A DNA stretch of 32,000 bases from Candidatus Thorarchaeota archaeon (GCA_003345555.1 PRDJ01000037.1:26314-58313), one strand, 5' to 3'. Shown: positions 8,656-32,000, counted from the stretch's first letter. Notes: generated by a model from the sequence alone, not told the origin. Made by a program: numbers and translations.

Positions 8656-8737
8656 TCTGTCCTCTAAGGAACGATTCTTACGGCTTAAGACTTCTCATGG
8701 CGCAGGGAGAGTCATTTGGTTCGGATTGCCGCCTCTT

Positions 8738-9738: not shown

Positions 9739-10347
9739 ATGGTTAGGAAGAAAAAAGGAGATCAGAACACAGAACAAGCGTCGGAAGCAACTGCTACCGA
9801 ACCCACGGGTGAGGCCTTCGAGATAGTTCCTGAAGACCCTTTTGAGACCGAGCGACTGAGGAACGAAGATCTCGTCGAGCGGCTGAAGAGACAGCAAGCT
9901 GACTTTGAGAACTACCGAAAGCGAGTCGAAAGCAGATACGCAGAGTACGCGAAGTTCGCCAGCGAAGGTATCCTTCTCAAGGTTGTTGACCTGTTTGACG
10001 ACCTTGATCGCGCTCTGCAGGCAGACTTCGCGAAGGACCCCGAAGCGGCCAAGAAGGGGATAGCTGGGATTCGTGAGAACTTGGCAAAGCTGCTCTCTCA
10101 GGAAGGCGTCCAGCCCATCGAGTCCGTTGGCGAACCCTTTGATTCGTACTACCAGCATGCTGTTCAGCGGACATGTGATCTCGGAAAGCCTGACAATATC
10201 GTTGTTGAGGAATACAAGCGAGGCTACATGCTCAAGGAGAAGGTCCTTCGCCCTGCACTTGTTTGCGTCAACAGACACGAAGCTATTCCTGAGACGGAAA
10301 GAGATTCTGCAGATGATAAGAGATGTTCAAAGGCGGGTGATGAGTAG
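9739..10347 (+). CDS. grpE: Nucleotide exchange factor GrpE
   Basis: [28 protein letters not shown] and [27 protein letters not shown]; first gene of the dnaK operon. Confidence 0.97.
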
Positions 10348-10349
10348 AC

Positions 10350-12251: not shown

Positions 12252-12275
12252 TGTGTGCGTCAAGGGTGACATTCG

Positions 12276-13331: not shown

Positions 13332-13897
13332 AAGCCCAACGGTTTACAGAGGCAAGCTCTCATCTTGAGCTCAGGGAAATTGCTTGTGTAAGCAGGTTGA
13401 ACGAGCCAAGATGTATCAGCGCCTCTTCCAGTACCTGCAATGCAAACCACGTCCCTGTCTACCGGCACGAGGCCTGAATCTGCGGCCATCATCGCAATCT
13501 CGGCTACCACTTTCGTACCCTGCCCAAACGTTCGGTAGACAACAGCGAGCAGCTCGGCAGTCATGTATGTACCCAGAGCTTTGCGAATACCTCGAGATAC
13601 GCCCGCGAATGCGTGCGTTGTCGTGAGGACGTGTGCACCGAGTTCTTGGAGTTGTCTCCTGACTTCATCAGACAGTTCGTTTTCTCCCGGAGCGGCGAAC
13701 CCGTAGGAGTGAGTCACCACAATCACTTTCTTGTCTTGAAACGCACGGGCCACACTCAGGCCAGTTGATCCTTCGGTAGTGGCTACCACGACATGCTCAA
13801 TGGTTTTGTTTCGGCTCATGAAGTCACCCACTACTGAAATGACCCGGTCGGTATGTTCAGGTGAAGCTCGCTCGAAGTAGACAGTCCTGATATCCAT
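13328..13897 (-). CDS. Stand-alone pyruvate-kinase C-terminal (PK_C)-like domain protein, COG1751-type archaeal conserved protein
   Basis: TVYFERASPEHT, VVVATTEGSTG, VTHSYGF, FGQGTKVVAEIAMMAADSG and AGTGRGADT. The start is placed at MDIRTV (ATG at 13897). Confidence 0.85.
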   Translation of the reverse strand: MDIRTVYFERASPEHTDRVISVVGDFMSRNKTIEHVVVATTEGSTGLSVARAFQDKKVIVVTHSYGFAAPGENELSDEVRRQLQELGAHVLTTTHAFAGVSRGIRKALGTYMTAELLAVVYRTFGQGTKVVAEIAMMAADSGLVPVDRDVVCIAGTGRGADTSWLVQPAYTSNFPELKMRACLCKPLGF

Positions 13898-14111
13898 AGG
13901 ATGATACTGCGCAGAGGCTCTCATGAGTGTTGCCCTGAGTTGTCCATGGCCAAGGGATGGTCTCACTTACCATGCTTTGAGATTGAACATCACCTGAAAC
14001 TATTACTTTCTGTCGTGAATGGACGCTATTGGTGGTTCGCTCTGCCGCTTGAGGGCCCTGCCGCAGTGCATATTAGTTCCATTCTCAAGACATGGGTCCG
14101 GAACAGCTATC

Positions 14112-16141: not shown

Positions 16142-19100
16142 CTAGGGCTCCCACTCTCCGGGTAGAAGTGACTCCATCTTCTTGAGCTTCCTACTCAAGA
16201 AGAGGGCTACTCCTGCTATGATACCTATCTCAGACACAACAGGGATAGTGCTTTCGTCCAACTGAATTGGAATTGACTGCCTGACAGGCAATGTGAATGT
16301 TTTCCTCTCCGACGCCAGTACTGGCAACCCCGAAAGAGTGACATTCAGGAGATAGGTTCCCTCTTTCTCTGGTATGAATACAACCTGCTGTAAGCCGCTC
16401 CTCGTCACAGAAAATGCCCATTGACCAACGAGGGTGTTTTCCGGTCCACGAGCATCGATAGTCAGAGTGCCTTTCCATTCTGAGCTGAGACCAGCTACCT
16501 CGTATTCGATGGTCACTATGCAGCTAATCCCGACAACTGCATCAGAATTGGCCGTGGCCTTCATTGATACAATCGGACTGACAGTCAAGCTCACGGTCTT
16601 TGCGCACACGTTGTATGTGGGCGAACCCTCATAGACAACGAACACACTGTGGTTACCTGCACCCAAACCCTCGATGCTCAGCGTTGCGCTTCCCCTAATA
16701 TCGGTCACAATAGAAAGATGTCTCTCTTCGACTCCTCCAAGAGTCACGATGACCACGATCTGCGCTTCCTGTATCTTAGAGACCGGGCCAGACAGTGTAA
16801 CCGAGAGAGACAACGCTTGTCCATAGACAATCTGTCTTGGAATATCCAGTCCTAGAGTGCATTCGTACCTAATCAGAACTACGATTTCGATTGATGCACC
16901 GGTCCTGAGTGCATCTCCGTCGAATACCAGTATCAGCGTGTAGTTGCCAATCTCTGATGGTGTCCATTCAACCCGAGTTCCTCCGAGGGTGGATACGACA
17001 GGTGTCCTTGTTGTGAGCGGGCTACCATAGATCTCTCTGCCTCTCGGGTCGTATAGACTCACAAACACTGTCATACCCGAGGTTGCATCTCCAAGAGAAT
17101 CAGTCAACAAGAAGATCATGTAGTGTTGTCGGCTAGGTACTCCCGGCAACGCCTTCTCCGGGATCACAAGGGCAGAAGTGGTGCTGACTACGAAATCCAA
17201 CCATGACGAGCCTCCCAAGCGCATCACAGAATCAGGAACAGTAGCAGTGATTTCGTAGTCTCCAACAGCGAACCCTCTTAGCGGGATTATTAGTCTTGAA
17301 CCATTGATGTGAACAAGACCAGCGAGTGCAATCAGACCGTTGGGACCTGTCAGTTCAATCTGCAAATCAAGCTGCTCGATTGCCATTTCCGTGCAGGATT
17401 CATCAACGACTGTAAGTACTAGTCGTCCATCTTCTGACCTGTCTGTTCTGGCAGGGCACTGGAACACAATGGTTGTAGTTCCTCTCGCCCAAATGCTGAC
17501 CGCAGCTGACGAGGGAAGATAGTGCTCAGTCCCGGCGAATGATAGAATGACCGTGTAGTTGCCGGCCAGCGGAAGGGTCAGGTTGAGAAGAACCGGGCTC
17601 TGCCCTAATTGAATGATGTTACCTTCGAGGCACAGTCCAATGATTTCGTGATAGACATCGTATTGCACGCTGAAGCCCTCAAGAGGAGTGCCTCCAGAAT
17701 CGGAGAGCAGCATTCGCAACTGAGCAAGGCTCCTACCTGCTACTATTTCTGCAGTAGTGGTCAATGACGCGTCAAGATTCGTGGCATATCTCACGTCAAG
17801 CTCAACTGAGGCGGTTGTCGCCAGATACACGCCTATTCCAGCGAAGTCTGCTCGCAGTTTCCAGAGACCTATCTCATCCATCTGAACTCTCCATGTGCTG
17901 TAGCCCGTGGCGTTTGTCACCACATCAACGGGCCCTTTGAGCCGACTGCCCGGGCCGTCCAACTGCAGTGAAATCGTCCGACCATCCATGGGCAGTCCAT
18001 CAGAGTCACTCAGGAGGACTGTGACATTCAGGTATGCTCCGACCTCCATGCACGGACTCTGAACGAATACAACCAATGACGTTCGTGAATACACAGTGTG
18101 CAGCGTTGTCGTTTGGAATGGATGCACAATGACAGAGCCCGAAGAAGAGACGTCGAGGGTGTACAACCCCGGGTACTGCGGCGTGAAGGCGAACCCTGCT
18201 GTCCCGTTTCTGACTTGGAGAGTGATCGACGATGACATGGGTCCCAATTTGACTTGCTGGCCATATGGATCATATACTCGTACGATGACAGAGATTCCAT
18301 CTATGAGTGCGCCTAGCTCGTCTTGGACCTGCATAGACACAGTCACCTCGTTAATGGCACAAGGCGGTATGGGGCCGAACGTTGCTGAAAGCTGAGCCTC
18401 AGTCATAACCACAAGCTGTTTCTGAGTTCCCGCTCCCAGTAGACATTCATCGGCCGCTGGCTCGGCCACTACCATCAGGATGCCGTAGGCCTGTTGGGCG
18501 ACATAGATTATCTGAACAAACCCGGAGCTGTTGGTTTTCGCTTCTGCAGTCCAGACCGGGACGAGGTTGACGCCTAGAACTTCGAAATGCACAGTAACGC
18601 CGTTGACGTTACCTTGGGCTGTCAGGGAATACTGAAGTGCTACAATGCCAAGCACATCTGTCTGTTTCGCAGATAAGAGAAGGCTTCCTGTTGCGACCTC
18701 CATGACGGGCACGCAAGAGACTGTTGAGTTTGTGTAGTAGTAGACATCTCCGGCATGCAACACTCGGATGAGAATCTGTCCTCGATTCGTCGGAGTCCAG
18801 TGAATGCGCACGAGACCATCAATCGTCTGTACTTGGCTTTGGAAGAGAGTGTTGCTGCCAGAGTCGATTCTCAACAGCAAAGTTCTGCCTGCAATGTTGT
18901 TTCCGAGAGCGTCCTTCAGACCGAGGTCCACCTCCGAATCTTGCCCGATGAGGTATGATGCGTCGTGGATGACAACAATGCCAGGTACTACAAAGATTCT
19001 CTGGGGCTCACTATGATTTGAAGGAGCTTGGAGTCCTGACCCACCGAAGGAAGCAGTGATTACGAAGTCTCCAACCGTGTTGAAGATGTAAGCAATGCTG

Positions 19101-22100
19101 CACTTGCCGCCTGCTCCCGTGATCGTAGTAGAGGACGAACAGACTGTTCCGCTTGCCCAGCCAATCACGATGTCGACTTGAGCGCCTATAATCGGGTACC
19201 CATTGTAGTCTGTTAGTGTAGCCACGAGTCCCACAAGTGACCCTTGCTTGACCGGTTGAGCCGGTGATGTTAGGCTGATGCTGGTCATGCCAAGAACCGT
19301 GCGCTCACAGAGTACCCATGCTCCAACCAGCCATCCTTGCGATGGACACGTTATGTTTACGTTCAACGTTCCGGAACACGGTAACTGGAGAATGAGATTG
19401 ATCTCGCCCACGCTCGATGTCAGGTTTGAGGAATCAAGAATCACTTCGTCATCGATTATTGCCACGACTATCACCTCAACACCTGCAAGTCTTGACTGGT
19501 CGTGGCCCTTGACAGTCAATTCAAGAGATATGGAACACGGCGCGACAGGAGCTGCTGCAATATCAGCTGAAATCACAGGAGTTTCCATCACAGCAACACT
19601 GACGGTCTTCTCCACTCTCTCATACCAGTATTGACGATCGATACAGACAACTATGCTGTTGATTCCTCTATGACCGGGCAGCCAAGCCACGTGCACGGTC
19701 TGGTTCTGTGTTGTCACCGTCGTCTGATACACTGTCTGGTTGGTCGGGCCTCTGACAAGAACGCTCGCAGTCAATCCTGAAATGGGAATACCCCTGTAGT
19801 CCAGCGCTAGGATCTCAAGCCAGTCTTCCTCTCCCACCAGAGGGTTCTCGCCTGCTGTTATCAGAACAACCACAGGAACTCGAAGCTCGAATACAGCAGT
19901 GCAAAGAGAGTTACCTCTTGAGAGTGTCCCGCCGAATTCAGCTTCAAACCTATATGTGCCTGCAGTATTCCCTGCCCATTGAAACACTACACGGCCAGTA
20001 GAATCTGTCGTCAGTGTTTGTTGGGCAATAATAGTCGACGGCAGGTAGACAATTCTCAGTGTCACCTGTACGCCGGAGACCGGCATTGAGCTGGAGTCAG
20101 TTATCTCAGTCCACAGGTTCCATGTCGTACCGACCAGCGATTCGGAAGTAGTCCCGCCGACGACGAGCGAGCTGGCGGACCATGATATAAGACCTTGGCT
20201 GGCTGAGCATCCGATAAGGAATCCAATGTCCGAAATTGATGCGTTTAGGAGATAGACTCCGTTGTCATCTAGAATGAAGCTCAGTCTTGCAAACCCAGTC
20301 GCGTTTGTAACCATTTGCGTATTCACGATTACAGCAGAAGACGGCGACGTGACAATAATATGAATGGGATAGTTCGACAATGGGATTCCGCTTTCTGTGG
20401 AAAGCCTTACATCATATGATCCAGATGAGTACTGGTTCTGCACTTGTGCTCCTATCCATTGCAGTTTCGTACTCTCGTAGACGTGAATCGCTCCGGCAAA
20501 GGATGCACTCTCAAGGCTGTCATTTCCCGCAAAAAAGAGAATGAAGCTGTAGTTTCCCCTTTGACTTGGCGCCCAAGTAAACGGTGATATGGTCCCTGAG
20601 CGCTCGAGAGCAATTGCACCGGACTGGTCTCTGACTGTAATCTTGACCCGCTGACTCGGTATGTCGCTGCCATTTGCAAGGTAATGGAGGGACCACCCTA
20701 TGGTCAGCGTCTCGTTGATTTTCCCCTGGATGAGTGCCAATGCCGAAATGTACGTCTGGACCGGCTCAAGCAACGTGACCTGCCGTAGCAAGGTGAGGTT
20801 CTGGCAATACGGCTTGTCTAATTGCGCCGTAATGCTGTATAATCCTGCAAGGAGCCCAGAAGTTGGAAGAGAGAATGAAAGTGGTGACTGAGTAGTATAC
20901 TCTATTTGCTGATGGACAAGCCCGTTACTAAGATCAATTGATACATGTGTCTGCCCCGCTGCGAATCCGCATTCAAGCGACCAATCAATGGTGCCGTTGA
21001 CATTGTGCCCTCTAGGCAATCTGGAAGCTGGAATCTGCAAGGTTCCCTGAAGCGTCCCTTGGACCTGTATCGAGACTGTGCAGTATGCTCTTGTCAAACT
21101 GAAGTCTTGGAGCATAATCGCTATGTTGCTAGGACCTAATGCCTTGTAGTCGCAGGGGATGCTGAGTTGTATTGAGTCCGTATCGCTAACATACCGGAAG
21201 AGCCGCCAGCATTCGAAAGCGAAGACAATGACACAATGACGACCTGAGAGTGGCGTCATTGATACTGCGAGCACCATAGAGGAGCCAATCTCTGTGACTG
21301 ATGGCCCGGTGGCGTTGATTGAGCTGCTAGATGGGGTTGCTAGACGTGTGCGGAGACCAAGAATCGAGATCATCTCCAAGACTCCTGCGGCATAGATGGG
21401 TTGCCACAACTTGGTCGAGTTGAACCAGCCGTCCGAGAATGGTGTTCCTCCGAGAGACTGGAGGATTGCTTGTGAGTCAACGCAGTCAAGGCTTGCTGAG
21501 AATCCAGAAGCGTTGAGGAGAGCTAGAGTTGCTACGTCTCTGCTGAGCGCCCACAAGTCCGAGTATTGAATTCTGGCTGTAACGGATTGCTGTACCTGTT
21601 CGGCTTTCGCAGAATCGAGTATCCCTAGTCTGAGCGCAGTCCTCGTGCAAAGCCAGTCGACTGCTGATTGTTGGCTGGCAAATGGCTTGAGTGTCCAACC
21701 TTCCGTGGACCATTGCCCTGATTCGAATTCAGCTAATACTGCCGACTCCAGGCTAGTTCTGTAATGAACCGTGTCTAATGCATTCAGGAGGTACAGTGAC
21801 TCTACAGCCGCAACTGTGTACTGCATTTGTGGTGTACCCATGAACGCCGTTGGTTTGTAGTGCCCGGAGGGATCCTGACACTGGTAAACGTATAGTTGGC
21901 CAGCGGATACAGCAGAATCCGGGATGCCGCTTCCGAGTGCAGCGTACACGGCTGCTCCAAAGTATTGAGTCCATGCACTCTGCATCCGATACTGAGTTGG
22001 AGAATACTCAATCGGCGTCGCAGCAGTCACGTTGCCTGGATATTGGGACCAGCCCACTAGTCCATCCACATACGACTTGGCAAGCGAATAGTCTGAGAAC

Positions 22101-23953
22101 CCTGCTGAATGAGACAGTCTGGATATCGATGCCAGCCAACTCGTCCACATCAGTGATGGTATCTTTTCCATTACCTCAAAACCCAGTCCGGTCTCACAGA
22201 GTGACAGAAAGCTCATTACCTTACTAGCCATTGATTCAGATTGCTGTCCGACGGCTTGGATGCACTGAGCGACATTCATTGTCGGCCATGTCTTGCCCAC
22301 ATTGTCGCTGGCTGCTTCAGTGAGGCCGAAACCCCCCGATGGTAGCTGGTTGGCGGCTAGCCAGGACATGCCTGTGGTCAGATTCTGATAGCTTAAAGTG
22401 TTCATGATTGCCATGGCCGTGAGAGCCGATGAGGTCCCGGTGACTAGCTCCCCGCTTGAGCCAAGCGTCTCCTTGTATGATCCATCGCCATTGGACATCC
22501 GAGTTGTAATCCAACTGGTGAGCTTGAGAGGGTCTCCATGGCTCTTGCCCAGCAGCTGCAGAGCCATGATGTATTGGGCGGCATAAGAGGTCCTTGCAGT
22601 GATGGTAGTCGGATTCTGTCCTACTGCGCCCCATAGGTCGGGGTTGGATGTCTTGGACCCGTCAATGATGCAACTACGGAGCCACGTCTCGGCGTTGGCT
22701 GTGTTGACGTAGGCAAGGCTGGCCGAGAGGGTTAGGCCCTCGACAACTAGACATGTAGTTGTGAGATCGTTGTTGAAGCCTCCTTCAGCATCCTGTCTCG
22801 AAGCCAAATACGAAATGAGCTTGTCTGAGCCGTAACGTGCAAGAAGTCCCATAGAAGAAGCCAGCCATAGCCCTTCTGCTGCGGTCTGCACGCTCACTGT
22901 ATTCTCACTTACCGAGTTCATGAAGCCAGCTTGTGACCCGTAGTCGACGAAGAGACTATCGAGGAGTCCTTGGATTAACGGCTGTTTCTGAGATTTCCAC
23001 GTTGACCAGTCCGACATACTCAATGCAGACTTCGCAGAGTGCACCACGGCGTATGCGGCCTTCAGAGTCGGTTCATGCAGATAGCGATACCCGCCGGCAA
23101 ACAGACTGTCATATGGTGCTTGGAGCTGGCTAACTACGTTCGTGGTCGAAGTCTCTCTGAGGGCGACTGAGAATGCAATTATGTTGACCAGCAGCCCACG
23201 ACCTTGGTCCGTCAACTTGGTGGGGTCTTCAGGACTAAACAGGAAGCAGTCAAGTGGATATGAGTCGTACCGAAGCACTGCGAGGTCCGCATGATTTTTC
23301 ACGCCAGTGAGATTCACGATGCGGGAATGTTCGCCTTGAGCCATGTCAACAGGCAGAACCAGACCAGTCTCCTCAGTAAGCTGAGAAGATATCGATAGTG
23401 TGATTGGGGAGTTGAGAAATGTAGCTGTCTCGTATCCTGGCGCTGTGAGAAGCCTTTGAGAAACCGATGCAGTCGCCGACGCCAACGGCGACGCCCTCAG
23501 ACTGTGGAGTAACCAAGCAGCTCGACCTGTGAGTATCACAGGAATGTCACACGAAATCAGCAGTTGGATAAACGTGTCTGGTATCCCACTTCCGTTTCCC
23601 GAACCCAGACTTCCATCCAGAAGAACTGCAGGCGCATGCTGCAACAAAGTGGGCTGCGCAAGAATGTCTTGAGTCGACAATACATGACTCACAATGCCGG
23701 ACGAATTGAGAATGGTTGACCATGCCTTGCCTAGTGCCGGAACGCTCGAATTCGGCATCTCTATCACTAGGTAAGGACTCACTTCGATTGTGCTCCCGGA
23801 ATCGGACGCTAGGCTCACGTTGTTTCCCCCGGGGCTTGTCACTGAGCCAGAAATCTGCGCTAAGTTCGGGCAATTGATAGTGACAGAATACTGAGACGTC
23901 CCGGCAATGAGAGCTATAACGACAGCCACGACAACAAGGCCTCTCGTCCTCAT
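16142..23953 (-). CDS. Giant TM-anchored cell-surface protein: GATase-like domain + prenyltransferase/squalene-cyclase-like toroid repeats + ~16-17 Ig-like repeats, 2603 aa
   Basis: Signal peptide MRTRGLVVVAVVIALIAG. QW-like toroid motifs SRQDAEGGF, NQLPSGGF, MSNGDGSY and QCQDPSGHY. Recurring ~100-aa units carry L.D..G.P(I/L).G..V (e.g. LTDYNGYPIIGAQV, LSDSDGLPMDGRTI, LSDSGGTPLEGFSV). C-terminal TM IGIIAGVALFL plus RKLKK. Confidence 0.85.
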   Translation of the reverse strand: MRTRGLVVVAVVIALIAGTSQYSVTINCPNLAQISGSVTSPGGNNVSLASDSGSTIEVSPYLVIEMPNSSVPALGKAWSTILNSSGIVSHVLSTQDILAQPTLLQHAPAVLLDGSLGSGNGSGIPDTFIQLLISCDIPVILTGRAAWLLHSLRASPLASATASVSQRLLTAPGYETATFLNSPITLSISSQLTEETGLVLPVDMAQGEHSRIVNLTGVKNHADLAVLRYDSYPLDCFLFSPEDPTKLTDQGRGLLVNIIAFSVALRETSTTNVVSQLQAPYDSLFAGGYRYLHEPTLKAAYAVVHSAKSALSMSDWSTWKSQKQPLIQGLLDSLFVDYGSQAGFMNSVSENTVSVQTAAEGLWLASSMGLLARYGSDKLISYLASRQDAEGGFNNDLTTTCLVVEGLTLSASLAYVNTANAETWLRSCIIDGSKTSNPDLWGAVGQNPTTITARTSYAAQYIMALQLLGKSHGDPLKLTSWITTRMSNGDGSYKETLGSSGELVTGTSSALTAMAIMNTLSYQNLTTGMSWLAANQLPSGGFGLTEAASDNVGKTWPTMNVAQCIQAVGQQSESMASKVMSFLSLCETGLGFEVMEKIPSLMWTSWLASISRLSHSAGFSDYSLAKSYVDGLVGWSQYPGNVTAATPIEYSPTQYRMQSAWTQYFGAAVYAALGSGIPDSAVSAGQLYVYQCQDPSGHYKPTAFMGTPQMQYTVAAVESLYLLNALDTVHYRTSLESAVLAEFESGQWSTEGWTLKPFASQQSAVDWLCTRTALRLGILDSAKAEQVQQSVTARIQYSDLWALSRDVATLALLNASGFSASLDCVDSQAILQSLGGTPFSDGWFNSTKLWQPIYAAGVLEMISILGLRTRLATPSSSSINATGPSVTEIGSSMVLAVSMTPLSGRHCVIVFAFECWRLFRYVSDTDSIQLSIPCDYKALGPSNIAIMLQDFSLTRAYCTVSIQVQGTLQGTLQIPASRLPRGHNVNGTIDWSLECGFAAGQTHVSIDLSNGLVHQQIEYTTQSPLSFSLPTSGLLAGLYSITAQLDKPYCQNLTLLRQVTLLEPVQTYISALALIQGKINETLTIGWSLHYLANGSDIPSQRVKITVRDQSGAIALERSGTISPFTWAPSQRGNYSFILFFAGNDSLESASFAGAIHVYESTKLQWIGAQVQNQYSSGSYDVRLSTESGIPLSNYPIHIIVTSPSSAVIVNTQMVTNATGFARLSFILDDNGVYLLNASISDIGFLIGCSASQGLISWSASSLVVGGTTSESLVGTTWNLWTEITDSSSMPVSGVQVTLRIVYLPSTIIAQQTLTTDSTGRVVFQWAGNTAGTYRFEAEFGGTLSRGNSLCTAVFELRVPVVVLITAGENPLVGEEDWLEILALDYRGIPISGLTASVLVRGPTNQTVYQTTVTTQNQTVHVAWLPGHRGINSIVVCIDRQYWYERVEKTVSVAVMETPVISADIAAAPVAPCSISLELTVKGHDQSRLAGVEVIVVAIIDDEVILDSSNLTSSVGEINLILQLPCSGTLNVNITCPSQGWLVGAWVLCERTVLGMTSISLTSPAQPVKQGSLVGLVATLTDYNGYPIIGAQVDIVIGWASGTVCSSSTTITGAGGKCSIAYIFNTVGDFVITASFGGSGLQAPSNHSEPQRIFVVPGIVVIHDASYLIGQDSEVDLGLKDALGNNIAGRTLLLRIDSGSNTLFQSQVQTIDGLVRIHWTPTNRGQILIRVLHAGDVYYYTNSTVSCVPVMEVATGSLLLSAKQTDVLGIVALQYSLTAQGNVNGVTVHFEVLGVNLVPVWTAEAKTNSSGFVQIIYVAQQAYGILMVVAEPAADECLLGAGTQKQLVVMTEAQLSATFGPIPPCAINEVTVSMQVQDELGALIDGISVIVRVYDPYGQQVKLGPMSSSITLQVRNGTAGFAFTPQYPGLYTLDVSSSGSVIVHPFQTTTLHTVYSRTSLVVFVQSPCMEVGAYLNVTVLLSDSDGLPMDGRTISLQLDGPGSRLKGPVDVVTNATGYSTWRVQMDEIGLWKLRADFAGIGVYLATTASVELDVRYATNLDASLTTTAEIVAGRSLAQLRMLLSDSGGTPLEGFSVQYDVYHEIIGLCLEGNIIQLGQSPVLLNLTLPLAGNYTVILSFAGTEHYLPSSAAVSIWARGTTTIVFQCPARTDRSEDGRLVLTVVDESCTEMAIEQLDLQIELTGPNGLIALAGLVHINGSRLIIPLRGFAVGDYEITATVPDSVMRLGGSSWLDFVVSTTSALVIPEKALPGVPSRQHYMIFLLTDSLGDATSGMTVFVSLYDPRGREIYGSPLTTRTPVVSTLGGTRVEWTPSEIGNYTLILVFDGDALRTGASIEIVVLIRYECTLGLDIPRQIVYGQALSLSVTLSGPVSKIQEAQIVVIVTLGGVEERHLSIVTDIRGSATLSIEGLGAGNHSVFVVYEGSPTYNVCAKTVSLTVSPIVSMKATANSDAVVGISCIVTIEYEVAGLSSEWKGTLTIDARGPENTLVGQWAFSVTRSGLQQVVFIPEKEGTYLLNVTLSGLPVLASERKTFTLPVRQSIPIQLDESTIPVVSEIGIIAGVALFLSRKLKKMESLLPGEWEP

Positions 23954-23955
23954 GT

Positions 23956-24552
23956 CTAGACATACACCCCCACGACTTGTGTGTAGAATAATACAAGAAC
24001 GGCGATTACCACAAGAAGCTCAATTGCACCTCGACGGCCCTGTTTCTTCAATGAAGCTCCGATTAGTGTGAGATCCCCGCTTCGAATGCAGCTGTTAAGG
24101 AGGACTGCTACCGCTAGGTACCAGCACACGAAGGCAAGAGGGAATTCCATCAATAGGCTCATGGGCACGAACAGAAGCAGGAATCCAACAAACACAGATG
24201 CTAGGGAGCTGAGGAAGAGGGCAACAAGTAGAGCAGCAACCCTAGGCGGTCTTTCCACGTGTATGAAGACGTTCACTTCTGCATATGTGGTCCCTACACC
24301 AAAGCCATCGAGATGGATACCCAAGACTGAGCACACAACATACCGGATTCCAGTATTGATGAAGATCCCCGGCGCCAACACTATGCTGAGAAGCGATAGC
24401 ACAGTATTCCTTGTCCAGGTATTGAAGGCACGCTTGTAGCCGGTCAAAAGCAATATGCTTCTGAACAGTGTCGCAACTATGATGACATAAGGAGCGATTC
24501 TCAGCGAGAACTGCATATTACCGATTAGAAGTTCAACGATTCCAAACTGCAC
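23956..24552 (-). CDS. Multi-pass membrane protein resembling M50/DUF3267 zincin-like peptidases but lacking HExxH
   Basis: About 5 hydrophobic helices. LAPGIFINTGIRYVVCSVLG matches the PG.I.HELSH..(C)..LG layout, and LNSCIRSGD matches the C-terminal ..PS.GD motif. It ends 2 nt before the start of the giant gene. GTG start. Confidence 0.6.
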   Translation of the reverse strand: MQFGIVELLIGNMQFSLRIAPYVIIVATLFRSILLLTGYKRAFNTWTRNTVLSLLSIVLAPGIFINTGIRYVVCSVLGIHLDGFGVGTTYAEVNVFIHVERPPRVAALLVALFLSSLASVFVGFLLLFVPMSLLMEFPLAFVCWYLAVAVLLNSCIRSGDLTLIGASLKKQGRRGAIELLVVIAVLVLFYTQVVGVYV

Positions 24553-24812: not shown

Positions 24813-26771
24813 ATGTCAAAGCGTTTACAGAGCGGCCGCAGAAGGCCGGTCATTGATAGGCTTCATGATGCGCGTGAGCGGAGAGCTCTCGAAGACGATC
24901 TTCAATTGCTGAGAAAGTTAGTTCTGGTTCCATATGCTCTGGAATGTCAGACGCTTGTCCTTGATGAGCCCCTTTACGAGTCCACTGTAGGATTGAATCC
25001 TCTCCCATCGTCTGCATATGGCGAGGACAGAATAGACTCAGCTTTAGGTATGTCTCTGGCAACAGAATCAATTACTGGATGGGATCGTCCTCTGGCCGCC
25101 AAGGGTAGTACATTGAGAATGCAGATTGACTCGCTGCTTCCCGACAATCTTCCGAACAGGCCGTCAATTATCTATGCTCTCTGCAGGGTAGTCACTGACG
25201 ACATACCTTCGAAGACACGTTGGCAGCTCTATAATCCCGGCCTCGACTCCTTTGCCGCCGCGGTCCTAGCTATTCACCATGTCGGAAAGGAAATCGCAAG
25301 GAGACCGGCTTGGCTAGAAGTCCTATGGCGGACCAGTATACTGCGTCTCAAAGTTGGCGTGTTGAGGGATTTGCTAGCAGCGCTGCGCGCTGCGCCGACA
25401 GCTGGCCGAATGAGGAAGCGTCTTAGGAAGGTAGGCCATCGTCTAATGAAAATGCTCCCCCAAGACCCCCTTGGAAGCACCATCATTGATACTTGGCTTG
25501 CTATGATACCCGGTGATATGAGCGGCCGCCTTCCCAACGATATCATCGACAGGCTACGAGATGGAGAGACAAAGGGGAAACAAAAGAGAAGCGGAATCTC
25601 CGAGGAACTTGAGCTCCTCCAATCATCCTCGGTGATATGGCCAGTGATGACGCTCAGAGCAGATGGATCCATCGCAGGCGATTCCGAGGGAATACTCAGC
25701 GAGGTTCGCCAACAACTCAATGCTTTGGAGTATAAGCCAGTCCGGGATATCTGTGCGTATTTGGCAGAACGTCCGATGCCCGGTTGTCCTACAGGTGCGG
25801 ATGTCATGAACGCCACAGGTCTGACAAAGAGCGCATCCTATCATGCGTCAGCCTTTCTTCAGATGGTGATAACAGAGGACTATGTACCTTCCTTCGGGTC
25901 TATGGGTCTTCAGTATAGGTACGTTATGATGTCTCAAGAGAGAGGCGTGGACAGGCCTCTGGCAATAGCTGACAAGTGCTTCCTCCGCCGCGAGCACGCG
26001 GCAAAAACCACAACCAAGAACTTGGCTCATGCAGGTTTCCGCGTCGCTGTCGGTCAAGTTGAGCCGGTCGGTTCCCAAGGCCCGAGCGAACGGGACTTGC
26101 CTGAAAACTCGTTTACCGTTTCTGTTCAGTCCCAGTTTGTGTCCGTGCGGCTTGACCTCTATGATGTTGGCAAGTCAGTATGGAGGGAGCCTTGGAACGA
26201 ACGCCGACCGGCGCCAAGATCCACCATTCTGCATCTAACAGGGTCCGAGCCGCCCGTGCTTGGACCTCCCTCAGTTCCGATGCAGCGTGAAGTTGATGCT
26301 CTCAGCATATTGTGGAGCTTCAAAGGGACAAGACCGACACGCCGATGGTTGTTCGAAAGGATGGGTTTTCCTGCGGGCACGGCGGAACATATCATCCCGA
26401 GTCTGTTCAAGAAAAGACTTGTGCGACTGATGTATTATCCCGCGCTTGAGTACTGCAGCTTGCCCGAAGGAATCTTCGCTTGTTCGACTGGCATGTCCGC
26501 AAGAGATCTATTATCATACACGCGATGGGCTGTGGGGGTCTTTCCATATTGTCGTATACTCACAAACAAGTCCGCGGGCGATGTTGTGGCAATCGCAAGA
26601 GTTCCTCGTCTAAGGAGTACACTTGCCTCTGAGGTGATCAGAGACCGACTTGAGGAGACTGGTTGCGAATTCATGGTCTCGGTCATCCAATCTTACAAAT
26701 CCTATTACATGACAGTACTAAATAGACTCTACAATCCTGTCTCCAGAGACTGGCTGGATCCGTGGTCTTAG
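24813..26771 (+). CDS. Hypothetical protein with C-terminal tandem Lrp/AsnC-like wHTH+RAM modules
   Basis: 652-aa ORF with a helical N-terminus. Module 1: HTH-like GADVMNATGLTKSASYH, linker YVPSFGSMGLQYRYV, ending SVRLDLYDVGKSVW. Module 2: MGFPAGTAEHIIPSLFKKRLVRLMY, ending SYKSYYMTVLNRLYNPVSRDW. Confidence 0.7.
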   Translation: MSKRLQSGRRRPVIDRLHDARERRALEDDLQLLRKLVLVPYALECQTLVLDEPLYESTVGLNPLPSSAYGEDRIDSALGMSLATESITGWDRPLAAKGSTLRMQIDSLLPDNLPNRPSIIYALCRVVTDDIPSKTRWQLYNPGLDSFAAAVLAIHHVGKEIARRPAWLEVLWRTSILRLKVGVLRDLLAALRAAPTAGRMRKRLRKVGHRLMKMLPQDPLGSTIIDTWLAMIPGDMSGRLPNDIIDRLRDGETKGKQKRSGISEELELLQSSSVIWPVMTLRADGSIAGDSEGILSEVRQQLNALEYKPVRDICAYLAERPMPGCPTGADVMNATGLTKSASYHASAFLQMVITEDYVPSFGSMGLQYRYVMMSQERGVDRPLAIADKCFLRREHAAKTTTKNLAHAGFRVAVGQVEPVGSQGPSERDLPENSFTVSVQSQFVSVRLDLYDVGKSVWREPWNERRPAPRSTILHLTGSEPPVLGPPSVPMQREVDALSILWSFKGTRPTRRWLFERMGFPAGTAEHIIPSLFKKRLVRLMYYPALEYCSLPEGIFACSTGMSARDLLSYTRWAVGVFPYCRILTNKSAGDVVAIARVPRLRSTLASEVIRDRLEETGCEFMVSVIQSYKSYYMTVLNRLYNPVSRDWLDPWS

Positions 26772-26787: not shown

Positions 26788-27774
26788 TCATGTCCACTGC
26801 TCCAATGTGGCTTGGTGTCTCCCGAATTCGCGCCATATCCGGACAATCTGGTCAGCAGTCTCTTCACTCCTTTCCTGACCAAAACAGGGCAGAAGAAGAG
26901 AAACAAGCTTGGACACGATTGGCGGTCTAAGAGATGCATCGAGGCCTGAAACGGAAATGTAGGCGGTCTGTTCGAAGACTTCTCGCGCGAGAAGGAGCGG
27001 TTCCCTCTCATCGGGGCGGTAACCTTTCGCCCTCAAGACAGCCTCTAGACTCCCATACCGCTTCAAGAGGATGGTTCCCTTGTGCGGACCCACTCCCTTG
27101 ATGCCGTCATTGTGGAAATCGCAGCCGCAGATTACTGCCAGGTCTCTAAGCTGGTCAAGGCCCAGACCAAGTGAGTCTTCGAGTTCCTGAAGCGTAGCTC
27201 TACAGATGCGGCCTCGGGACAACTCCATGTGATTTGTCACATGAGGGCTTCCAAAGAATAAGGCGTCCGCATCATTTGATACAACTGTCTTGACGAGGCC
27301 GCCCCTGCACAATGTCGCGCACAGCATTTCCGCCTCTGAAGGTGCCGTCAAAGTGGGAACACCCATGGCACGCGCCAAGTCCTTGAGGTGTTCTGCTGCA
27401 AAATACATGCGAAGTGCGGGGCTGTTTAGAATCTCTCTAGAGACTTTCTCGTTGTAGGGGTCACTCTCTCGTGAGAACTCAGAATAGACCTCATGGGCTC
27501 TTATCACGAGCTCGGGGTTTGGCTCTCTCTTCAAGGACTCCGGAGGTCCATCGAAGACCAAGACGGGCAGCACCTTATTACGAAGTGCAGTCTTGATGAG
27601 ACCAAATCCCATCAGAAGGTGCTCGAGAGGTACTCTTTCTCTGTAGGTCTTCTTCCGCTTCAAGACAGAGACTCTTCGGGTGATGTAATTCGGTGCATCT
27701 ACTGCAATGGTTCCGAGAATCTCGTATGAATCGGCCCAGACCCACGGAATGACACTGAACCGTTTTACGCCCAT
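26788..27774 (-). CDS. fen: Divergent FEN1/XPG-family 5' nuclease with a C-terminal PIP box
   Basis: MGV start; acidic residues D26 (AVDA), D75 (VFDG), E147/E149 (APSEAE), D168/D170 (SNDAD) and GCDF; H3TH GIKGVGPHKG; C-terminal QATLEQW. Confidence 0.9.
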   Translation of the reverse strand: MGVKRFSVIPWVWADSYEILGTIAVDAPNYITRRVSVLKRKKTYRERVPLEHLLMGFGLIKTALRNKVLPVLVFDGPPESLKREPNPELVIRAHEVYSEFSRESDPYNEKVSREILNSPALRMYFAAEHLKDLARAMGVPTLTAPSEAEMLCATLCRGGLVKTVVSNDADALFFGSPHVTNHMELSRGRICRATLQELEDSLGLGLDQLRDLAVICGCDFHNDGIKGVGPHKGTILLKRYGSLEAVLRAKGYRPDEREPLLLAREVFEQTAYISVSGLDASLRPPIVSKLVSLLLPCFGQERSEETADQIVRIWREFGRHQATLEQWT

Positions 27775-27783
27775 TGGGAGTCC

Positions 27784-28512
27784 TCACTTGATGCTGCTGA
27801 TGTTTTTTGCTGACAACCTGATCACAACCCCCGTTGGAGGATCGGGAAGAGGACATCTTTCTACAAGTATGGTGACTAGGTTGTCCGTACCAACATCCAG
27901 CTTCTCTACGCGTACGACGCTGTCAACGTTGTGCGCCACGACGTTGCCGCCAATCGGGGAGGGCTCACCAGAGGACCAATTGGGTGAAGAGTGGTCTGTC
28001 ATCATCACATGCGCTGAGCTATGATTAACGAATTCCCTTATCGTCTCCAGTGTATGAAAGAGCTTTCTTTGTCTTCCTGGACCGGTGACATCGTCACTCA
28101 AATCAAGTGCCGACGTTAGGCTATCGACCACAACGACCTGCACTCGTTCAGTGTCACGAATGAGTGATAGCTCATGTTCTATGTCTGAAAGACTCAGCAC
28201 TTTTCCGACAGCTATGCGTTGAAGGATTCCCGACGCATCTTGGTACCGACCGCACAAGGACCTAGCCAATGTTGGACTGTAGTTGTTCCCGGCATGTAGA
28301 TAGACCGAGCGCTGCCCGTTTGCTTTGGCTGCGCAGACAGTGACCAAGTGTGCAAGTGCCGTGAGGGGTGCCCGACTAGGACCATGAAGCAAGCTGATCT
28401 GGCTCGGTATGAGCAGCCTCCCCAATACTGCATCTAGGGGTTTGGGCACCAAAGAAAAGTGAGGCGCAGGGTCAATCGCTATCTCCTCAAGCGGCCTGCG
28501 ATAGATGCTCAT
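27784..28512 (-). CDS. RadA/Rad51-like RecA-fold paralog with a degenerate Walker A (predicted pseudo-ATPase)
   Basis: LDAVLG, HGPSRAPLTALAH (RadA has GEFGSGKTQLAH), VVVVDSLTS, RQRKL and PIGGNVVAH. There is no N-terminal HhH domain. GAGGAGG lies upstream; the start is ATG 28512 or GTG 28515. Confidence 0.8.
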   Translation of the reverse strand: MSIYRRPLEEIAIDPAPHFSLVPKPLDAVLGRLLIPSQISLLHGPSRAPLTALAHLVTVCAAKANGQRSVYLHAGNNYSPTLARSLCGRYQDASGILQRIAVGKVLSLSDIEHELSLIRDTERVQVVVVDSLTSALDLSDDVTGPGRQRKLFHTLETIREFVNHSSAHVMMTDHSSPNWSSGEPSPIGGNVVAHNVDSVVRVEKLDVGTDNLVTILVERCPLPDPPTGVVIRLSAKNISSIK

Positions 28513-29458
28513 CACCTCCTCGGATTAGAGAGTAATTCCTAAACAGGACTACACCGGTCTCCAGCCCTCGTGGGATTTCCTCTGTCTTGAGGCCGGGAAC
28601 AATCTCTTCTGGAAACACAGCTACGAGGCTTCCTTTGTCGGCAAAGACTGTCAGTCTCTCCGGCCATTGGGAAATTGCTTGAGTCAACGCCATGCTGTCT
28701 CTGACTATGCGATAGTCACGCATCTTGAGCCCATATGATTCATCAATGAGTGGAAGCATAAGAACGGCCTCGGCTAGCAAGGGCCGGGCCCGCTTCACAT
28801 GGGAAATACCATATTCCGAAAGCGTAGACGTTGCCTTGCGAAACACTCCTTCATCGGCATCTGAGGAAGTAACAATTACAGCATAGCAGTCTGCAAGACG
28901 AGTAATCGATACAGGTAGAAGGGGCCTCTCCTTCATCAGCTGTATAACCTTGTGTCTATCTTCCTGCTGCAGTACAATCACTCGTGCTTGTTGCATGAGG
29001 GCGCTAGAGAGTGTCGCGATCGCTGTTGGGGTGATTTGACCTGATGGGTTGTCAGTGTACAATGCCAGCGAACGCAGTTGAGACCTTCCTCTGTAATTCC
29101 AGACGCTCGGAGGGAAAGCTGCTGCGGAGAAGCTAAGAATGGTGGCCACAGATGTGATGAAGGATGCGAGAAGTCCCCATGGAAGAACGTACGCAAATGA
29201 GACAGCGGCCACGTAAGCGATTGTTCCGTAAGCCAACATGGTTAGAATCGGTCTGGTTGGAGAATGGCTCTTGACTCGTCGCACCAGCAGGCAGAGGACA
29301 AGAGTTCCAACGAATGTCAATATAAGAGGAAGCAAGTCACCATGACGTGCTGATACAACAACTGAAATGATTGAAGCCAGAATCTCAGTCCCTACGGTTA
29401 AGACCACCATGACCACCAGACCGAACACGATTCCTTTCCACAGAAGGCCGCCGAACAT
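28487..29458 (-). CDS. Hypothetical membrane protein (about 4 N-terminal TMs + soluble C-terminal domain)
   Basis: 323-aa ORF with hydrophobic helices in the first ~115 aa. It is translationally coupled to both neighbours. Confidence 0.75.
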   Translation of the reverse strand: MFGGLLWKGIVFGLVVMVVLTVGTEILASIISVVVSARHGDLLPLILTFVGTLVLCLLVRRVKSHSPTRPILTMLAYGTIAYVAAVSFAYVLPWGLLASFITSVATILSFSAAAFPPSVWNYRGRSQLRSLALYTDNPSGQITPTAIATLSSALMQQARVIVLQQEDRHKVIQLMKERPLLPVSITRLADCYAVIVTSSDADEGVFRKATSTLSEYGISHVKRARPLLAEAVLMLPLIDESYGLKMRDYRIVRDSMALTQAISQWPERLTVFADKGSLVAVFPEEIVPGLKTEEIPRGLETGVVLFRNYSLIRGGDEHLSQAA

Positions 29459-29461
29459 GCT

Positions 29462-30148
29462 CTATGGATTCCTCCCGATGTCTGATGACTGGCAAATGCA
29501 GTTTACTTCAATCAGTCCCGTGTCCAGAAGTCTCAGTCTGCCAATCTGCGTCTGAACTCCAGATTTCGGATCAATGCCTGTAATGCTAGAATATCGACCC
29601 GCCATCTCTCTTCGTATGAGAATCTCTTTATCGGACCAGCGCCTGATTGCTTGTTGATGAACTGGGGCATTCTCGCTTTCCTGAAGCAATCTGCACTCGC
29701 TGGTAACAAGCACTCTTGATCCATTGGCCGCTAGGGCAGCAAGAGTGGGCAGCGCCTCCTCAATGAGCTCTTGACCCCACAACGTGGGGTTCGAACGCGC
29801 CATGTCCGCCACTCGCGTCACTGGGTCCACCACAATTAGTGCAGTGCTCCTTTCGAGCAAGGGCACAAGATTGAGAATAGCTCGCTGTGCTTCGTTGTGA
29901 CTCCGAGTCATTGTCACGAGGATGTTGCCAGTGCTACCGCCCCGCTCTTTCACGTTTCTCTTGAGATGAGGTATGAAGGACATCTTCCCATCTGTGCTAA
30001 TCCATTCAACCTGAGTGTTAGCAGACGCTTGGGCTGCCATCGCGACGGCAAAGAGACTCTTCCCGGCACCTGCAGGTCCCCAAACATGTACGAGCCCGTT
30101 GAGTCCCAGCGAGGTCGATGGCCAACGACTAGATGTCTCTATCCTCAT
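29462..30148 (-). CDS. RecA-superfamily ATPase (RadB/Rad51-paralog-like), intact Walker A
   Basis: VHVWGPAGAGKS (30056-30079 encodes GPAGAGKS), WISTDG, Walker B LIVVDPV and LVTSE. The start is placed at MRIETS (ATG 30148). No RadB-type KHR patch was seen. Confidence 0.8.
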   Translation of the reverse strand: MRIETSSRWPSTSLGLNGLVHVWGPAGAGKSLFAVAMAAQASANTQVEWISTDGKMSFIPHLKRNVKERGGSTGNILVTMTRSHNEAQRAILNLVPLLERSTALIVVDPVTRVADMARSNPTLWGQELIEEALPTLAALAANGSRVLVTSECRLLQESENAPVHQQAIRRWSDKEILIRREMAGRYSSITGIDPKSGVQTQIGRLRLLDTGLIEVNCICQSSDIGRNP

Positions 30149-31904
30149 CGTTCTGTCCTTCTTCCGTTGCTTTTCCACCGGCATCCTTGTGAACCAATGC
30201 CCGCACAGAGTGTTCCTGTCCGCGTGTCTTGACGACTGTGTCAGCTTTGGTGGGGTCATCCATCTTGGCAACATAACGTGTTTGTGCTGCCGAGTCTTTG
30301 TCCTCGCTCTCAACAGACTTGCTAGCAACTGGGCTCTCTAGAGATTCTTGCATTCGCAAAGTGGCCGATGCTTCTGATTTCCTGGACGGCAGAGAGTCCG
30401 TAGTAGGACTTGAATTATCACGTATGGATTGGGAGGCCTGTCTGAATTCCTCATTCCTGTCTACATGTTTGCCTCCAGTCACGGGCTGATCGAAATCTGG
30501 CTGAGTTTCTGCTTTCGTCTCCGGTGAACGAGCAACTGATACTGTTTCGTCCGGCCCATGCAGAATCTGTTCGAGTTCATGTGCAACAGTTTCCATTGCC
30601 CACGTGTTCATGACGTTGTCGAGTTTCTCCCTAGCATCTTGGGTGAGCACTCCCGAGTCACCCAAGACGTTTGTCAGTGATGTCATGTGGTCGACGACTT
30701 CCCCGAATCCTATGGGACTTGACAGATGTCCGGTGAGTCCAACGTAGGCAACAGCTAAGCTTTCCTCTTCTGAATTTACGCCGAGGTACTTCATGAATCC
30801 AAGGAATCTCTTGAGACCTTCGTCTGTTCCAGCCAGAGATGGTTCGATCTCATTTGCAGGGCTTGGTGAGAGGCGCACACACTCATCTAGCACGTAACAT
30901 GCCGACGAAACAGCATGATTCACATCGCCCGCCTTCAGTGCTTCTGCCGCCATCACCATCAGAGGTGAGACAACGAAGCTTAGGTCTTCAACCGTTCTCA
31001 GCAAGTCCCGGTTCTTCTCAGCTGATTTTGCGGTTCTGGCGGAATCTCCCACCTCCAATGCGTGGAGATGCTCGGTCTTCAGTGCAAGAACGAGCTCGTT
31101 GAATCTCCGCCTCGATGTAGACAGCAGCTTGACAGTCGCAATGCCGGCAACTCCTGCGAGCAATAGAGGTACAATCATTGCAGTTGGGTGTCCTAGACCG
31201 ACCATGGAAGCTGTCATCAGCCCTACCAATATAGTGACGAGGGCTAACACACCATACCATCCGTTCGCCATCGCCTGCCGAACTAGAGCTACCTTGTTCT
31301 TGCCTACACCGTTTCTCAGCTTTGCGGATGAGGACCTCATGTCGCTCTGCCGCGAAAGTGCAAGGTCACTGATGCTCACTACCCTTTTCGAGTCCGTCAG
31401 CCATGAAAGGTCTGCCGCGGGTCGAATGTCCTTGCAGATTGCATACACCCATCTTGTCTCTATGACTATCGAAGATGCTTTACCTGACTGTGTCAACAGT
31501 ATCGGCAGACGAATGCGTCCCCAGGGCATGACCAAAGGTTTCTCGCTCAATGATTCTTCGAGACCCACATCGTCAAGAATGCCTTGCAGCGGCCTATTCA
31601 CATGCGCCAGTACCGCTGCCATCATCGCAGTTGTAGTTTTCCATGCTTTGTCAGAACGCAAGTCCACTACGTGCGTGATTTCAATATGCACACTGCGAGT
31701 TCCCGGAACCGCCTCAAGTCGGACTGCTAGAACAATGCCGTTTGAATAAGAGTGAACTCTGTGACCTGAGTTCTTGAGGATTGCAGCAATATCGTCAGTG
31801 CGGCGCTTGGTATCATCCTTTGCTCCTGTCTCACTGCGAGCGGAAGCATGTTGATCGGTTTTCCCAGAAACCTCCCTGGGCATCTCAGATTCAGTCGTTG
31901 TCAT
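30129..31904 (-). CDS. Hypothetical protein with a central 2-TM hairpin, helical region and disordered C-terminus
   Basis: Long ORF. The ATG at 31904 is preceded by the RBS GGGGTGA. TMs: WYGVLALVTILVGLMTASMV and MIVPLLLAGVAGIATV. The tail is rich in S/E/K/D/T. Confidence 0.75.
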   Translation of the reverse strand: MTTTESEMPREVSGKTDQHASARSETGAKDDTKRRTDDIAAILKNSGHRVHSYSNGIVLAVRLEAVPGTRSVHIEITHVVDLRSDKAWKTTTAMMAAVLAHVNRPLQGILDDVGLEESLSEKPLVMPWGRIRLPILLTQSGKASSIVIETRWVYAICKDIRPAADLSWLTDSKRVVSISDLALSRQSDMRSSSAKLRNGVGKNKVALVRQAMANGWYGVLALVTILVGLMTASMVGLGHPTAMIVPLLLAGVAGIATVKLLSTSRRRFNELVLALKTEHLHALEVGDSARTAKSAEKNRDLLRTVEDLSFVVSPLMVMAAEALKAGDVNHAVSSACYVLDECVRLSPSPANEIEPSLAGTDEGLKRFLGFMKYLGVNSEEESLAVAYVGLTGHLSSPIGFGEVVDHMTSLTNVLGDSGVLTQDAREKLDNVMNTWAMETVAHELEQILHGPDETVSVARSPETKAETQPDFDQPVTGGKHVDRNEEFRQASQSIRDNSSPTTDSLPSRKSEASATLRMQESLESPVASKSVESEDKDSAAQTRYVAKMDDPTKADTVVKTRGQEHSVRALVHKDAGGKATEEGQNDEDRDI

Positions 31905-32000
31905 TTGGCTCACCCCTTTTCATTCGAGATTCAATCGCATCTGACAATCGGGTTGCAGTCTCGCTTGCTTTTGATAATCCACCAAGGCTGGCAATAGCTT

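Follow-up and report, generated by a model that had tools for sequence, protein, structure and literature searches.

We describe here a group of five genes, A to E, on the minus strand of a 32,000-nucleotide (nt) stretch of the Candidatus Thorarchaeota archaeon assembly GCA_003345555.1 (PRDJ01000037.1:26314-58313; this whole stretch is hereafter called the window), together with the larger operon to which they belong. The five co-oriented open reading frames (ORFs; A-B-C-D-E, 26788-31913 in the ORF listing of the window, table 1) encode two paralogs of the RecA family and one of FEN1, interspersed with two membrane proteins of no known family. Comparison with related genomes indicates that they form the distal module of an operon of 17-19 genes found only in Thorarchaeota. 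From the predicted products, we are inclined, by a modest degree, to attribute to this operon a recombination-coupled handling of DNA at the cell envelope, most likely the exchange of DNA between cells or its uptake.

The five genes are tightly packed. A and B overlap by 20 nt, B and C are separated by a 3-nt gap, C and D overlap by 29 nt (26 nt if counted from the ATG of D) and a 9-nt gap lies between D and E, with Shine-Dalgarno motifs of the GGAGG/GAGGA type upstream of the starts of A-E. All the ORFs, positions and junctions reported in an earlier note, drawn from this DNA alone, were recovered, the start of A being placed at GTG 31913 where the note had given ATG 31904. Against the nearest relative, the ratio of non-synonymous to synonymous substitution rates (dN/dS) was 0.08-0.20 across A-E (A 0.20, B 0.09, C 0.14 and D 0.08, the lowest of the five), rough values as dS is saturated; judged by these ratios, A-E are under purifying selection.

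The earlier note had staked its interpretation on a gene order shared with related genomes, and that order was retained throughout: A-B-C-D-E was kept in 10 of 10 loci from related genomes and in 28 of 28 loci from the species collection, at identities of 22-82% (the lowest, 22%, for C). On the strength of these loci, the arrangement is far beyond chance. Its distribution is narrow. A profile of A detected members in 54 of the 85 genomes of the window's family and in none of 315 other Asgard genomes, and retrieved only 62 proteins from 1.84 billion cluster representatives; the profile of C detected 56 of the 85 genomes and one marginal match among the 315. The FEN1 paralog E was found in approximately 20 of 24 sampled genomes of the family (44-80% identity), and outside the family the same genome sample yielded only FEN1 of the canonical type, at approximately 30% identity. 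Moreover, A, C and E co-occur, as genomes without one of them are without the others (G001, G005, G016, G019 and G024). Taken as a whole, the pattern is that of an operon restricted to Thorarchaeia, vertically inherited and, from its junctions, translationally coupled.

The five genes do not stand alone, contrary to the self-contained operon proposed in the earlier note. Indeed, the last 110 bases of the window, read on the minus strand, end in RLSDAIESRMKRGEPNDND followed by a stop codon and align with the C-terminus of a gene of the nearest relative (genome G003), here called N10. The stop codon of N10 lies inside the first codons of A (overlap of 14-23 nt). In relatives, ten co-directional and mostly overlapping genes, N1-N10, precede A, six of them (N1, N2, N4, N5, N7 and N8) coding for uncharacterized proteins. 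A 15-gene array from N1 to E, of which A-E are the last third, is present in G003, G012, G022 and G006, with a divergent gene of the GH3 family as its upstream boundary. In the window's own genome, the assembly breaks inside the operon: N1-N6 lie at the end of contig C75 (locus L072, 5243-9099), cut within N6, and the rest of N6 to N10 is unassembled, falling in the gap between C75 and the contig of the window, C37. A search for N9 in this genome found nothing, which is explained by this assembly gap rather than by absence of the gene. A match on contig C30 to the N10 of a relative (38% identity, approximately 740 nt from the contig end) was considered as the missing piece and judged to be a paralog. 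In one locus of G003 (L031, G003:C3), N10 consists of two ORFs that overlap on the plus strand (3679-4593 and 4538-5893), owing to either a frameshift or an assembly error.

Two further genes, G and H, belong to the same ensemble. In the window's family, E is followed by the convergent gene F and then by G and H on the strand of A-E; G and H are present in 24 of the 28 loci, and of the four loci without them only one (L039) has 10 kb past E, the others stopping at contig ends. H combines a signal peptide, an alpha/alpha toroid, macroglobulin domains MG2/MG4, Big_1, Big_3_5 and filamin-type Ig repeats with a C-terminal transmembrane (TM) anchor, according to Pfam and hydropathy. The order differs in more distant relatives. 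A genome of the sister family (G025) has a tight operon made of a 315-aa ORF (whose 5' end lies beyond the stretch examined), G, H and B-like, C-like, D-like and FEN-like genes, and the divergent genome GCA_053940065.1, which gave the weakest match to the A profile, has a single array N3-N4-N5-N6-N7-N8-N9-N10-A'-G-H-B-C and onwards. Because two different gene orders keep them together, the arrangement argues for a functional link of G and H to B-E. F is a syntenic neighbour in most loci, absent in L044 and L054, where G-H come straight after E, and may lie outside the system.

Table 1. Genes of the operon and its immediate neighbour F. Positions are those of the window; N1-N9 lie outside it (aa, amino acids).
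Gene	Position	Strand	Length	Description
N1			~250 aa	no family
N2			~155 aa	no family
N3				full-length RadA paralog with helix-hairpin-helix (HhH) domain; Rad51 179 bits
N4				CxxC...CxxC Zn-ribbon and tail resembling a winged helix-turn-helix
N5			~210 aa	no family
N6				XPD/Rad3-like helicase
N7			200 aa	N-terminal 2-TM hairpin
N8			~110 aa	
N9			~790 aa	one TM segment; HerA/FtsK-like (weak assignment); Walker A degenerate
N10 (3' end)	31891..32000	-	735 aa in relatives	Hel308-like superfamily 2 helicase, in G012 matching Hel308 NCBIfam models over residues 6-394; in the window the last 35 codons and stop, truncated by contig end
A	30129-31913	-	594 aa	2-TM membrane protein; GTG start 31913, alternative ATG 31904
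B	29462-30148	-	228 aa from ATG	RadB-like RecA-fold ATPase; Walker A (GxxGxGK[ST]) and Walker B (VVDP) intact
C	28487-29458	-	323 aa	4-TM membrane protein
D	27784-28515	-	243 aa	RadA/Rad51 core paralog; GTG start, alternative ATG 28512
E	26788-27774	-	328 aa	FEN1 paralog, active site intact; C-terminal motif QATLEQWT resembling a PCNA-interacting peptide (PIP)
F	24813..26771	+	652 aa	no known family; convergent with E
G	23956..24552	-	198 aa	membrane protein, 4-5 TM segments; directly upstream of H
H	16142..23953	-	2,603 aa	surface protein

The families named for A-E in the earlier note (an active and a dead RecA-fold protein, a FEN1 paralog with a PIP-like tail and two membrane proteins without family) were upheld by Pfam, NCBIfam, profile and motif evidence. 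D scored 29.4 bits against Pfam Rad51 PF08423 (cut-off 22), and the profile of its orthologs matched RadA/Rad51/Dmc1 structures (E 4e-17, residues 19-208) as well as the RAD51D chains of BCDX2 structures. It lacks the N-terminal HhH domain (no HHH_5 match) and the FxxA polymerization motif of recombinases that form filaments, its core beginning near residue 20, whereas N3 does have HHH_5. The Walker A position of D reads GPSRAPLT and GK occurs in no ortholog of the window's family; the catalytic glutamate is also lost, LHAGN/LDSG standing in place of the IDTE of RadA in all orthologs of the family, while Walker B is retained. The description of D as dead at Walker A therefore stands for every ortholog of this family, but does not extend to the sister lineage, whose counterpart (L074, G025:C1, 2042-2713, minus strand) has an intact GGPGTGKT. 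Given that intact copy, the loss of ATP binding predicted for D is a derived trait specific to the window's family.

B is homologous to D (hhalign 92.8%, 161 columns) and has kept its ATPase motifs. Its Walker A reads GPAGAGKS, and G29, K30 and the D108 of Walker B (VVDP) are invariant in the ortholog alignment; G-K-[ST] was detected in 26 of 28 orthologs, the remaining two being misses of the search pattern. With 38 bits against RadB TIGR02237, below the equivalog cut-off of 172.4, and a match to the RadB structure 2cvf that covers only residues 19-112 (E 2.6e-5), B may be described as weakly RadB-like. The canonical RadA of the genome (312 bits) is encoded on another contig. Two more short paralogs of the RadA/RadB type were seen in the genome (G000, contigs C73:32888-33277 and C26:15133-15717), bringing the RecA family to six genes in 2.3 Mb (these two, RadA, N3, B and D).

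B and D recall the mediators formed by Rad51 paralogs (yeast Rad55-Rad57, human BCDX2) and archaeal RadB/aRadC. Like them, they are short paralogs with the RecA fold that have no N-terminal domain; one of the two is ATP-competent and the other degenerate, and their genes are adjacent and close to that of a full-length recombinase. Unlike RadB, both fall far under the RadB equivalog cut-off (38-39 bits versus 172), and unlike the known mediators, each is translationally coupled to a membrane protein; a mediator role would here be putative.

The FEN1 paralog E is equally distinct from its canonical counterpart. Against the archaeal FEN1 model TIGR03674, it scored 105.8 bits, below the equivalog cut-off of 351.95, compared with 423.7 bits for the canonical FEN1 of the same genome (contig C10). 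The seven active-site carboxylates of FEN1 (XPG-N/XPG-I) are all kept (D26, D75, E147, E149, D168, D170 and D219) and do not vary among 11 orthologs and the canonical copy. At the C-terminus, 25 of 26 orthologs display Q-x-T-L-[ED]-x-[WF]-h; with respect to the PIP consensus Qxx[LIM]xx[FYW][FYW], this tail keeps the Q, the L and the W/F, its last position being V/L/T/I/M and rarely aromatic. An 11-residue insert of the genome's canonical FEN1 is absent from E and from all its orthologs, and E scored 81 bits against human FEN1, above most archaeal FEN1 structures, with an alignment gap of only 3 residues at the insert site. In a FEN1 tree that contained no eukaryotic sequences, the E clade formed a long branch (support 100/99) outside all canonical archaeal FEN1 and next to the G025 paralog, a position in which long-branch attraction is possible. 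Two other FEN1 loci deserve mention: the paralog of G011 (G011:C4:65094-66058) was matched in two pieces with an in-frame TAA, as a possible pseudogene or sequencing error, and a genome of another Asgard family (L073, G031:C1) has two FEN1 genes 4 kb apart on the minus strand (approx. 8525-9319 and 12616-13641; 342 and 346 aa), both of canonical type in the tree.

A divergent second Fen1, 'Fen1-2', was recently described in many Asgard clades beside the universal Fen1-1 (Nat Ecol Evol 2025, PMC12680538); it is long-branching, has lost the beta-hairpin as eukaryotic FEN1 has, and was proposed as the source of eukaryotic FEN1. E shares with it the status of second divergent copy, the long branch and the lost beta-hairpin. 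Since the insert is absent, the scores resemble those of human FEN1 and the clade branches far outside canonical FEN1, E is very probably the Thorarchaeial Fen1-2. There, Fen1-2 is treated as a replisome paralog: the main text contains neither 'gene neighbo-' nor 'synten-', and its single 'operon' refers to rfc genes. E, by contrast, is the last gene of a membrane-linked recombination operon.

The two orphan membrane proteins, A and C, match no known fold or family in the searches made here. By hydropathy, A has two TM segments and C has four. In its AlphaFold2 model (mean predicted local distance difference test, pLDDT, of 70, confident over residues 34-455), combined with hydropathy, A is organized as a disordered N-terminus, an alpha/beta domain (approx. 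34-200), a long TM hairpin (approx. 215-255), a helical domain (approx. 290-455) and a disordered acidic tail. No family in Pfam, NCBIfam or PADLOC matched A, and fold searches gave nothing significant (best E of 0.29 in the PDB with Foldseek, with scattered rows of nucleotidyltransferase folds; best TM-score <0.5 in the Atlas). A broad structure comparison returned only helical hairpins, plus a match of residues 302-422 to the helical domain of the nucleotidyltransferase-like 3c18 (Z 9.3); a nucleotidyltransferase fold for A was dropped, its strand order being incompatible with the canonical core of these enzymes. An apparent A-B fusion in locus L029 was likewise rejected, because a stop codon separates two ORFs of the same frame. 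C is modelled (pLDDT 81.6) as four TM helices (3-114) joined by a linker to a cytoplasmic alpha/beta domain (144-312), in which a beta-alpha-beta-beta-alpha unit occurs twice. Its best fold lead, to ACT-like regulatory domains, is weak (Foldseek E 9e-3), and the Atlas returned no match; in the broad structure comparison, its best scores, Z 7.9 (ESX-3 6lar_G, root-mean-square deviation 18) and 7.2 (TrwK/VirB4 N-domain), were both below the noise mark. The prediction of a complex between C(136-323) and D scored 0.00, in runs that had no controls, and weighs neither way. The earlier note had allowed that these proteins might turn out to belong to families unrelated to DNA metabolism; A and C match no such family.

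Among the upstream genes, N9 calls for particular caution. A profile of 17 orthologs matched four different HerA structures over the Walker B/sensor region (E 0.04-0.12), and hhalign aligned N9 collinearly with HerA proteins of the same genomes, starting at the P-loop and reaching the C-terminal motif (292 columns, E 3e-3, probability 10%); Pfam found no consistent family for its orthologs. The P-loop position reads CGG....R and Walker B reads D-x-P, GK[ST] being absent. A HerA/FtsK-like identity is thereby plausible but weak. In a genome of another Asgard family (L075, G030:C5, 2155-8369, plus strand), we observed a co-directional set made of a RadA paralog (415 aa), two small ORFs, an N9-like gene (480 aa) and a FEN1-like gene (271 aa), continuing with two genes of no known family and a 214-aa P-loop ATPase; this set may be a reduced relative of the Thorarchaeota system.

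In all, the operon unites three RecA-family proteins and two helicases of opposite polarity classes with a FEN1 paralog whose catalytic site is intact. Added to these are a giant surface protein and five membrane proteins, N7, N9, A, C and G, each with predicted TM segments. The catalytic residues of E and the P-loop of B are conserved, and D, although catalytically dead, is the most strongly constrained of A-E. From this content, a tentative mechanism can be drawn for how DNA would be handled at the envelope. A membrane platform would be made up of A, C, N7 and N9, in which A and C serve as scaffolds whose cytoplasmic domains hold the short RecA-fold proteins B and D. B would hydrolyse ATP with D as its ATPase-dead partner, the pair acting as a mediator of the Rad51-paralog type for the operon's own RadA paralog, N3. 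Single-stranded DNA for N3 could be supplied by the XPD-like N6 (5'-3') and the Hel308-like N10 (3'-5'), and E would cut the 5' flaps that arise from strand invasion or annealing, possibly on PCNA through its PIP-like tail. N7, N9, G and the giant surface protein H would tie this recombination chemistry to the envelope.

Several observations weigh against this interpretation. No channel (VirB6/CedA-like), pilin or active translocase was recognized among the operon products. N9, the sole HerA/FtsK-like protein, seems to be inactive and is itself weakly assigned (hhalign probability 10%). Neither A nor C has a significant fold match, which makes their role as scaffolds conjectural, and the last position of the PIP-like tail of E is not aromatic, binding to PCNA being a prediction from the motif. 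The linkage of G and H could stem from shared regulation rather than from a shared machine. Lastly, about one-third of the family's genomes are without the operon; some of these are 91-93% complete, and so the operon is dispensable.

Alternatively, the operon could be a second, specialized toolkit for chromosomal repair or replication restart (RadA2, XPD2, Hel308-2, Fen1-2 and RadB-like mediators), in which the membrane proteins merely localize or regulate the enzymes and no DNA crosses the envelope. Each enzyme is indeed paralogous to a canonical repair or replication factor encoded elsewhere in the genome, the tail of E suggests action at PCNA-loaded DNA, the HerA-like N9 is seemingly unable to hydrolyse ATP, and the published view of Fen1-2 is that of a replisome paralog (PMC12680538). 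Nevertheless, such a toolkit does not readily explain five membrane proteins, an extracellular protein of 2,600 aa or the embedding of G-H between A' and B in the sister lineage, and we consider it unlikely, while taking it seriously. The absence of the operon from some fairly complete genomes of the family would also fit a defence against viruses or plasmids, in which the membrane sensors A, C, N9 and H detect invading DNA that the helicases, RecA-like ATPases and FEN-type nuclease destroy. Combining helicases with nucleases and P-loop ATPases is characteristic of defence systems, and N6 and N10 match the PADLOC models of DinG (type IV CRISPR-associated) and HamB helicases. These matches, however, correspond to the generic helicase core, B gave a single 19-bit P-loop match, and the defence models of PADLOC-DB 2.0 had no match to A, C, D, E, F, G, N1-N5 or N7-N9. 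In 28 loci from many genera, the neighbourhood is the same housekeeping one; this, apparent vertical inheritance and uniform GC content speak against a defence system, and a full-length RadA paralog with a PIP-tailed FEN1 suggests repair or recombination rather than degradation; we regard a defence role as quite improbable.

A domesticated remnant of a mobile element or virus, that is a replication-recombination module with envelope proteins fixed in Thorarchaeia, would fit the very long branch of the E clade, outside all canonical archaeal FEN1, and the orphan status of families A and C. The chromosomal position of the operon is fixed across genera with no compositional deviation, and neither the cluster nor its flanks hold an integrase, capsid, terminase or replication-initiator gene, so that we give this origin hardly any credence. 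Returning to DNA handling at the envelope, its boldest form would be an envelope-spanning apparatus for cell-to-cell DNA exchange with built-in recombination, a dedicated 'mating and recombination' machine of Asgard archaea for which the eukaryote-like Fen1-2 lineage evolved as the flap nuclease. We hold this version to be very unlikely; if it were true, the eukaryotic type of FEN1, and perhaps specialized recombinase paralogy, would have arisen in proto-sexual DNA transfer and not in the replisome.

Known systems offer partial parallels. The Ced (Sulfolobales) and Ted (Thermoproteales) DNA import systems (PMC9905601) are likewise encoded on archaeal chromosomes, reside in the membrane and are associated with genes for homologous recombination, among them HerA-like and Rad50 genes at Ted loci. 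Both include a HerA/VirB4-class P-loop protein and small 2-TM proteins, and their logic, DNA transfer at the envelope coupled to recombination, is the one proposed here. In the operon, however, neither CedA/TedA (VirB6-like, 6-7 TM) nor the pilin CedA1/TedC had a recognized homolog, N7 not having been compared with pilins; its membrane proteins carry 1-5 TM segments, and no VirB6-like chain was listed in the fold searches, which covered A and C only. Walker A of N9 also lacks GK[ST], whereas CedB/TedB are active ATPases of the VirB4/HerA type. Conversely, the Ced/Ted operons are without RadA paralogs, XPD, Hel308, FEN1 and a giant surface protein. Because no VirB6-like channel or pilin was recognized and the HerA-like protein has no P-loop lysine, the likeness is one of logic only, without homology, and the operon is not a member of Ced/Ted. 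The archaeal end-resection operon HerA-NurA/Mre11-Rad50 similarly associates a HerA-class protein, a nuclease and recombination functions, but the Thorarchaeota cluster has no NurA, Mre11 or Rad50, and its N9 carries a TM segment and no GK[ST], in contrast to the HerA of that operon, which is soluble and forms an active hexamer. The earlier note had not recognized the gene set as a described system, and our literature searches found no paper that describes the operon; it appears to be a system without a described counterpart, whose function we infer only.

The surroundings of the operon are unremarkable. GC content is uniform along the window, and the neighbouring genes are housekeeping ones. 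The earlier remark that no polymerase is present at the locus holds for the window and for the extended cluster alike. An ordinary grpE-dnaK-dnaJ chaperone operon lies at 9739-13331 (plus strand), with Sir2, CitG and 2-hydroxyacid dehydrogenase genes close by, and a 702-aa protein of no known family (14019-16127, plus strand) flanks the G-H unit on the opposite strand, as the 652-aa F does on the other side.

Thorarchaeia belong to the archaea closely related to eukaryotes, and to our knowledge none has been grown in culture. In one of their largest conserved operons, six paralogs of repair enzymes (three of the RecA family, two helicases and FEN1) are devoted to an unassigned task, together with a giant surface protein and five membrane proteins. 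If the operon moves or recombines DNA at the envelope, it would be, beside Ced/Ted and haloarchaeal fusion, a third way of exchanging DNA that arose independently in archaea. In any case, the probable Fen1-2 of Thorarchaeia is hard-wired into this operon, which changes its reading as a replisome component, and this setting matters both when Fen1-2 is used as a marker in phylogenomics and when scenarios are drawn up for how eukaryotic factors of replication and recombination originated.

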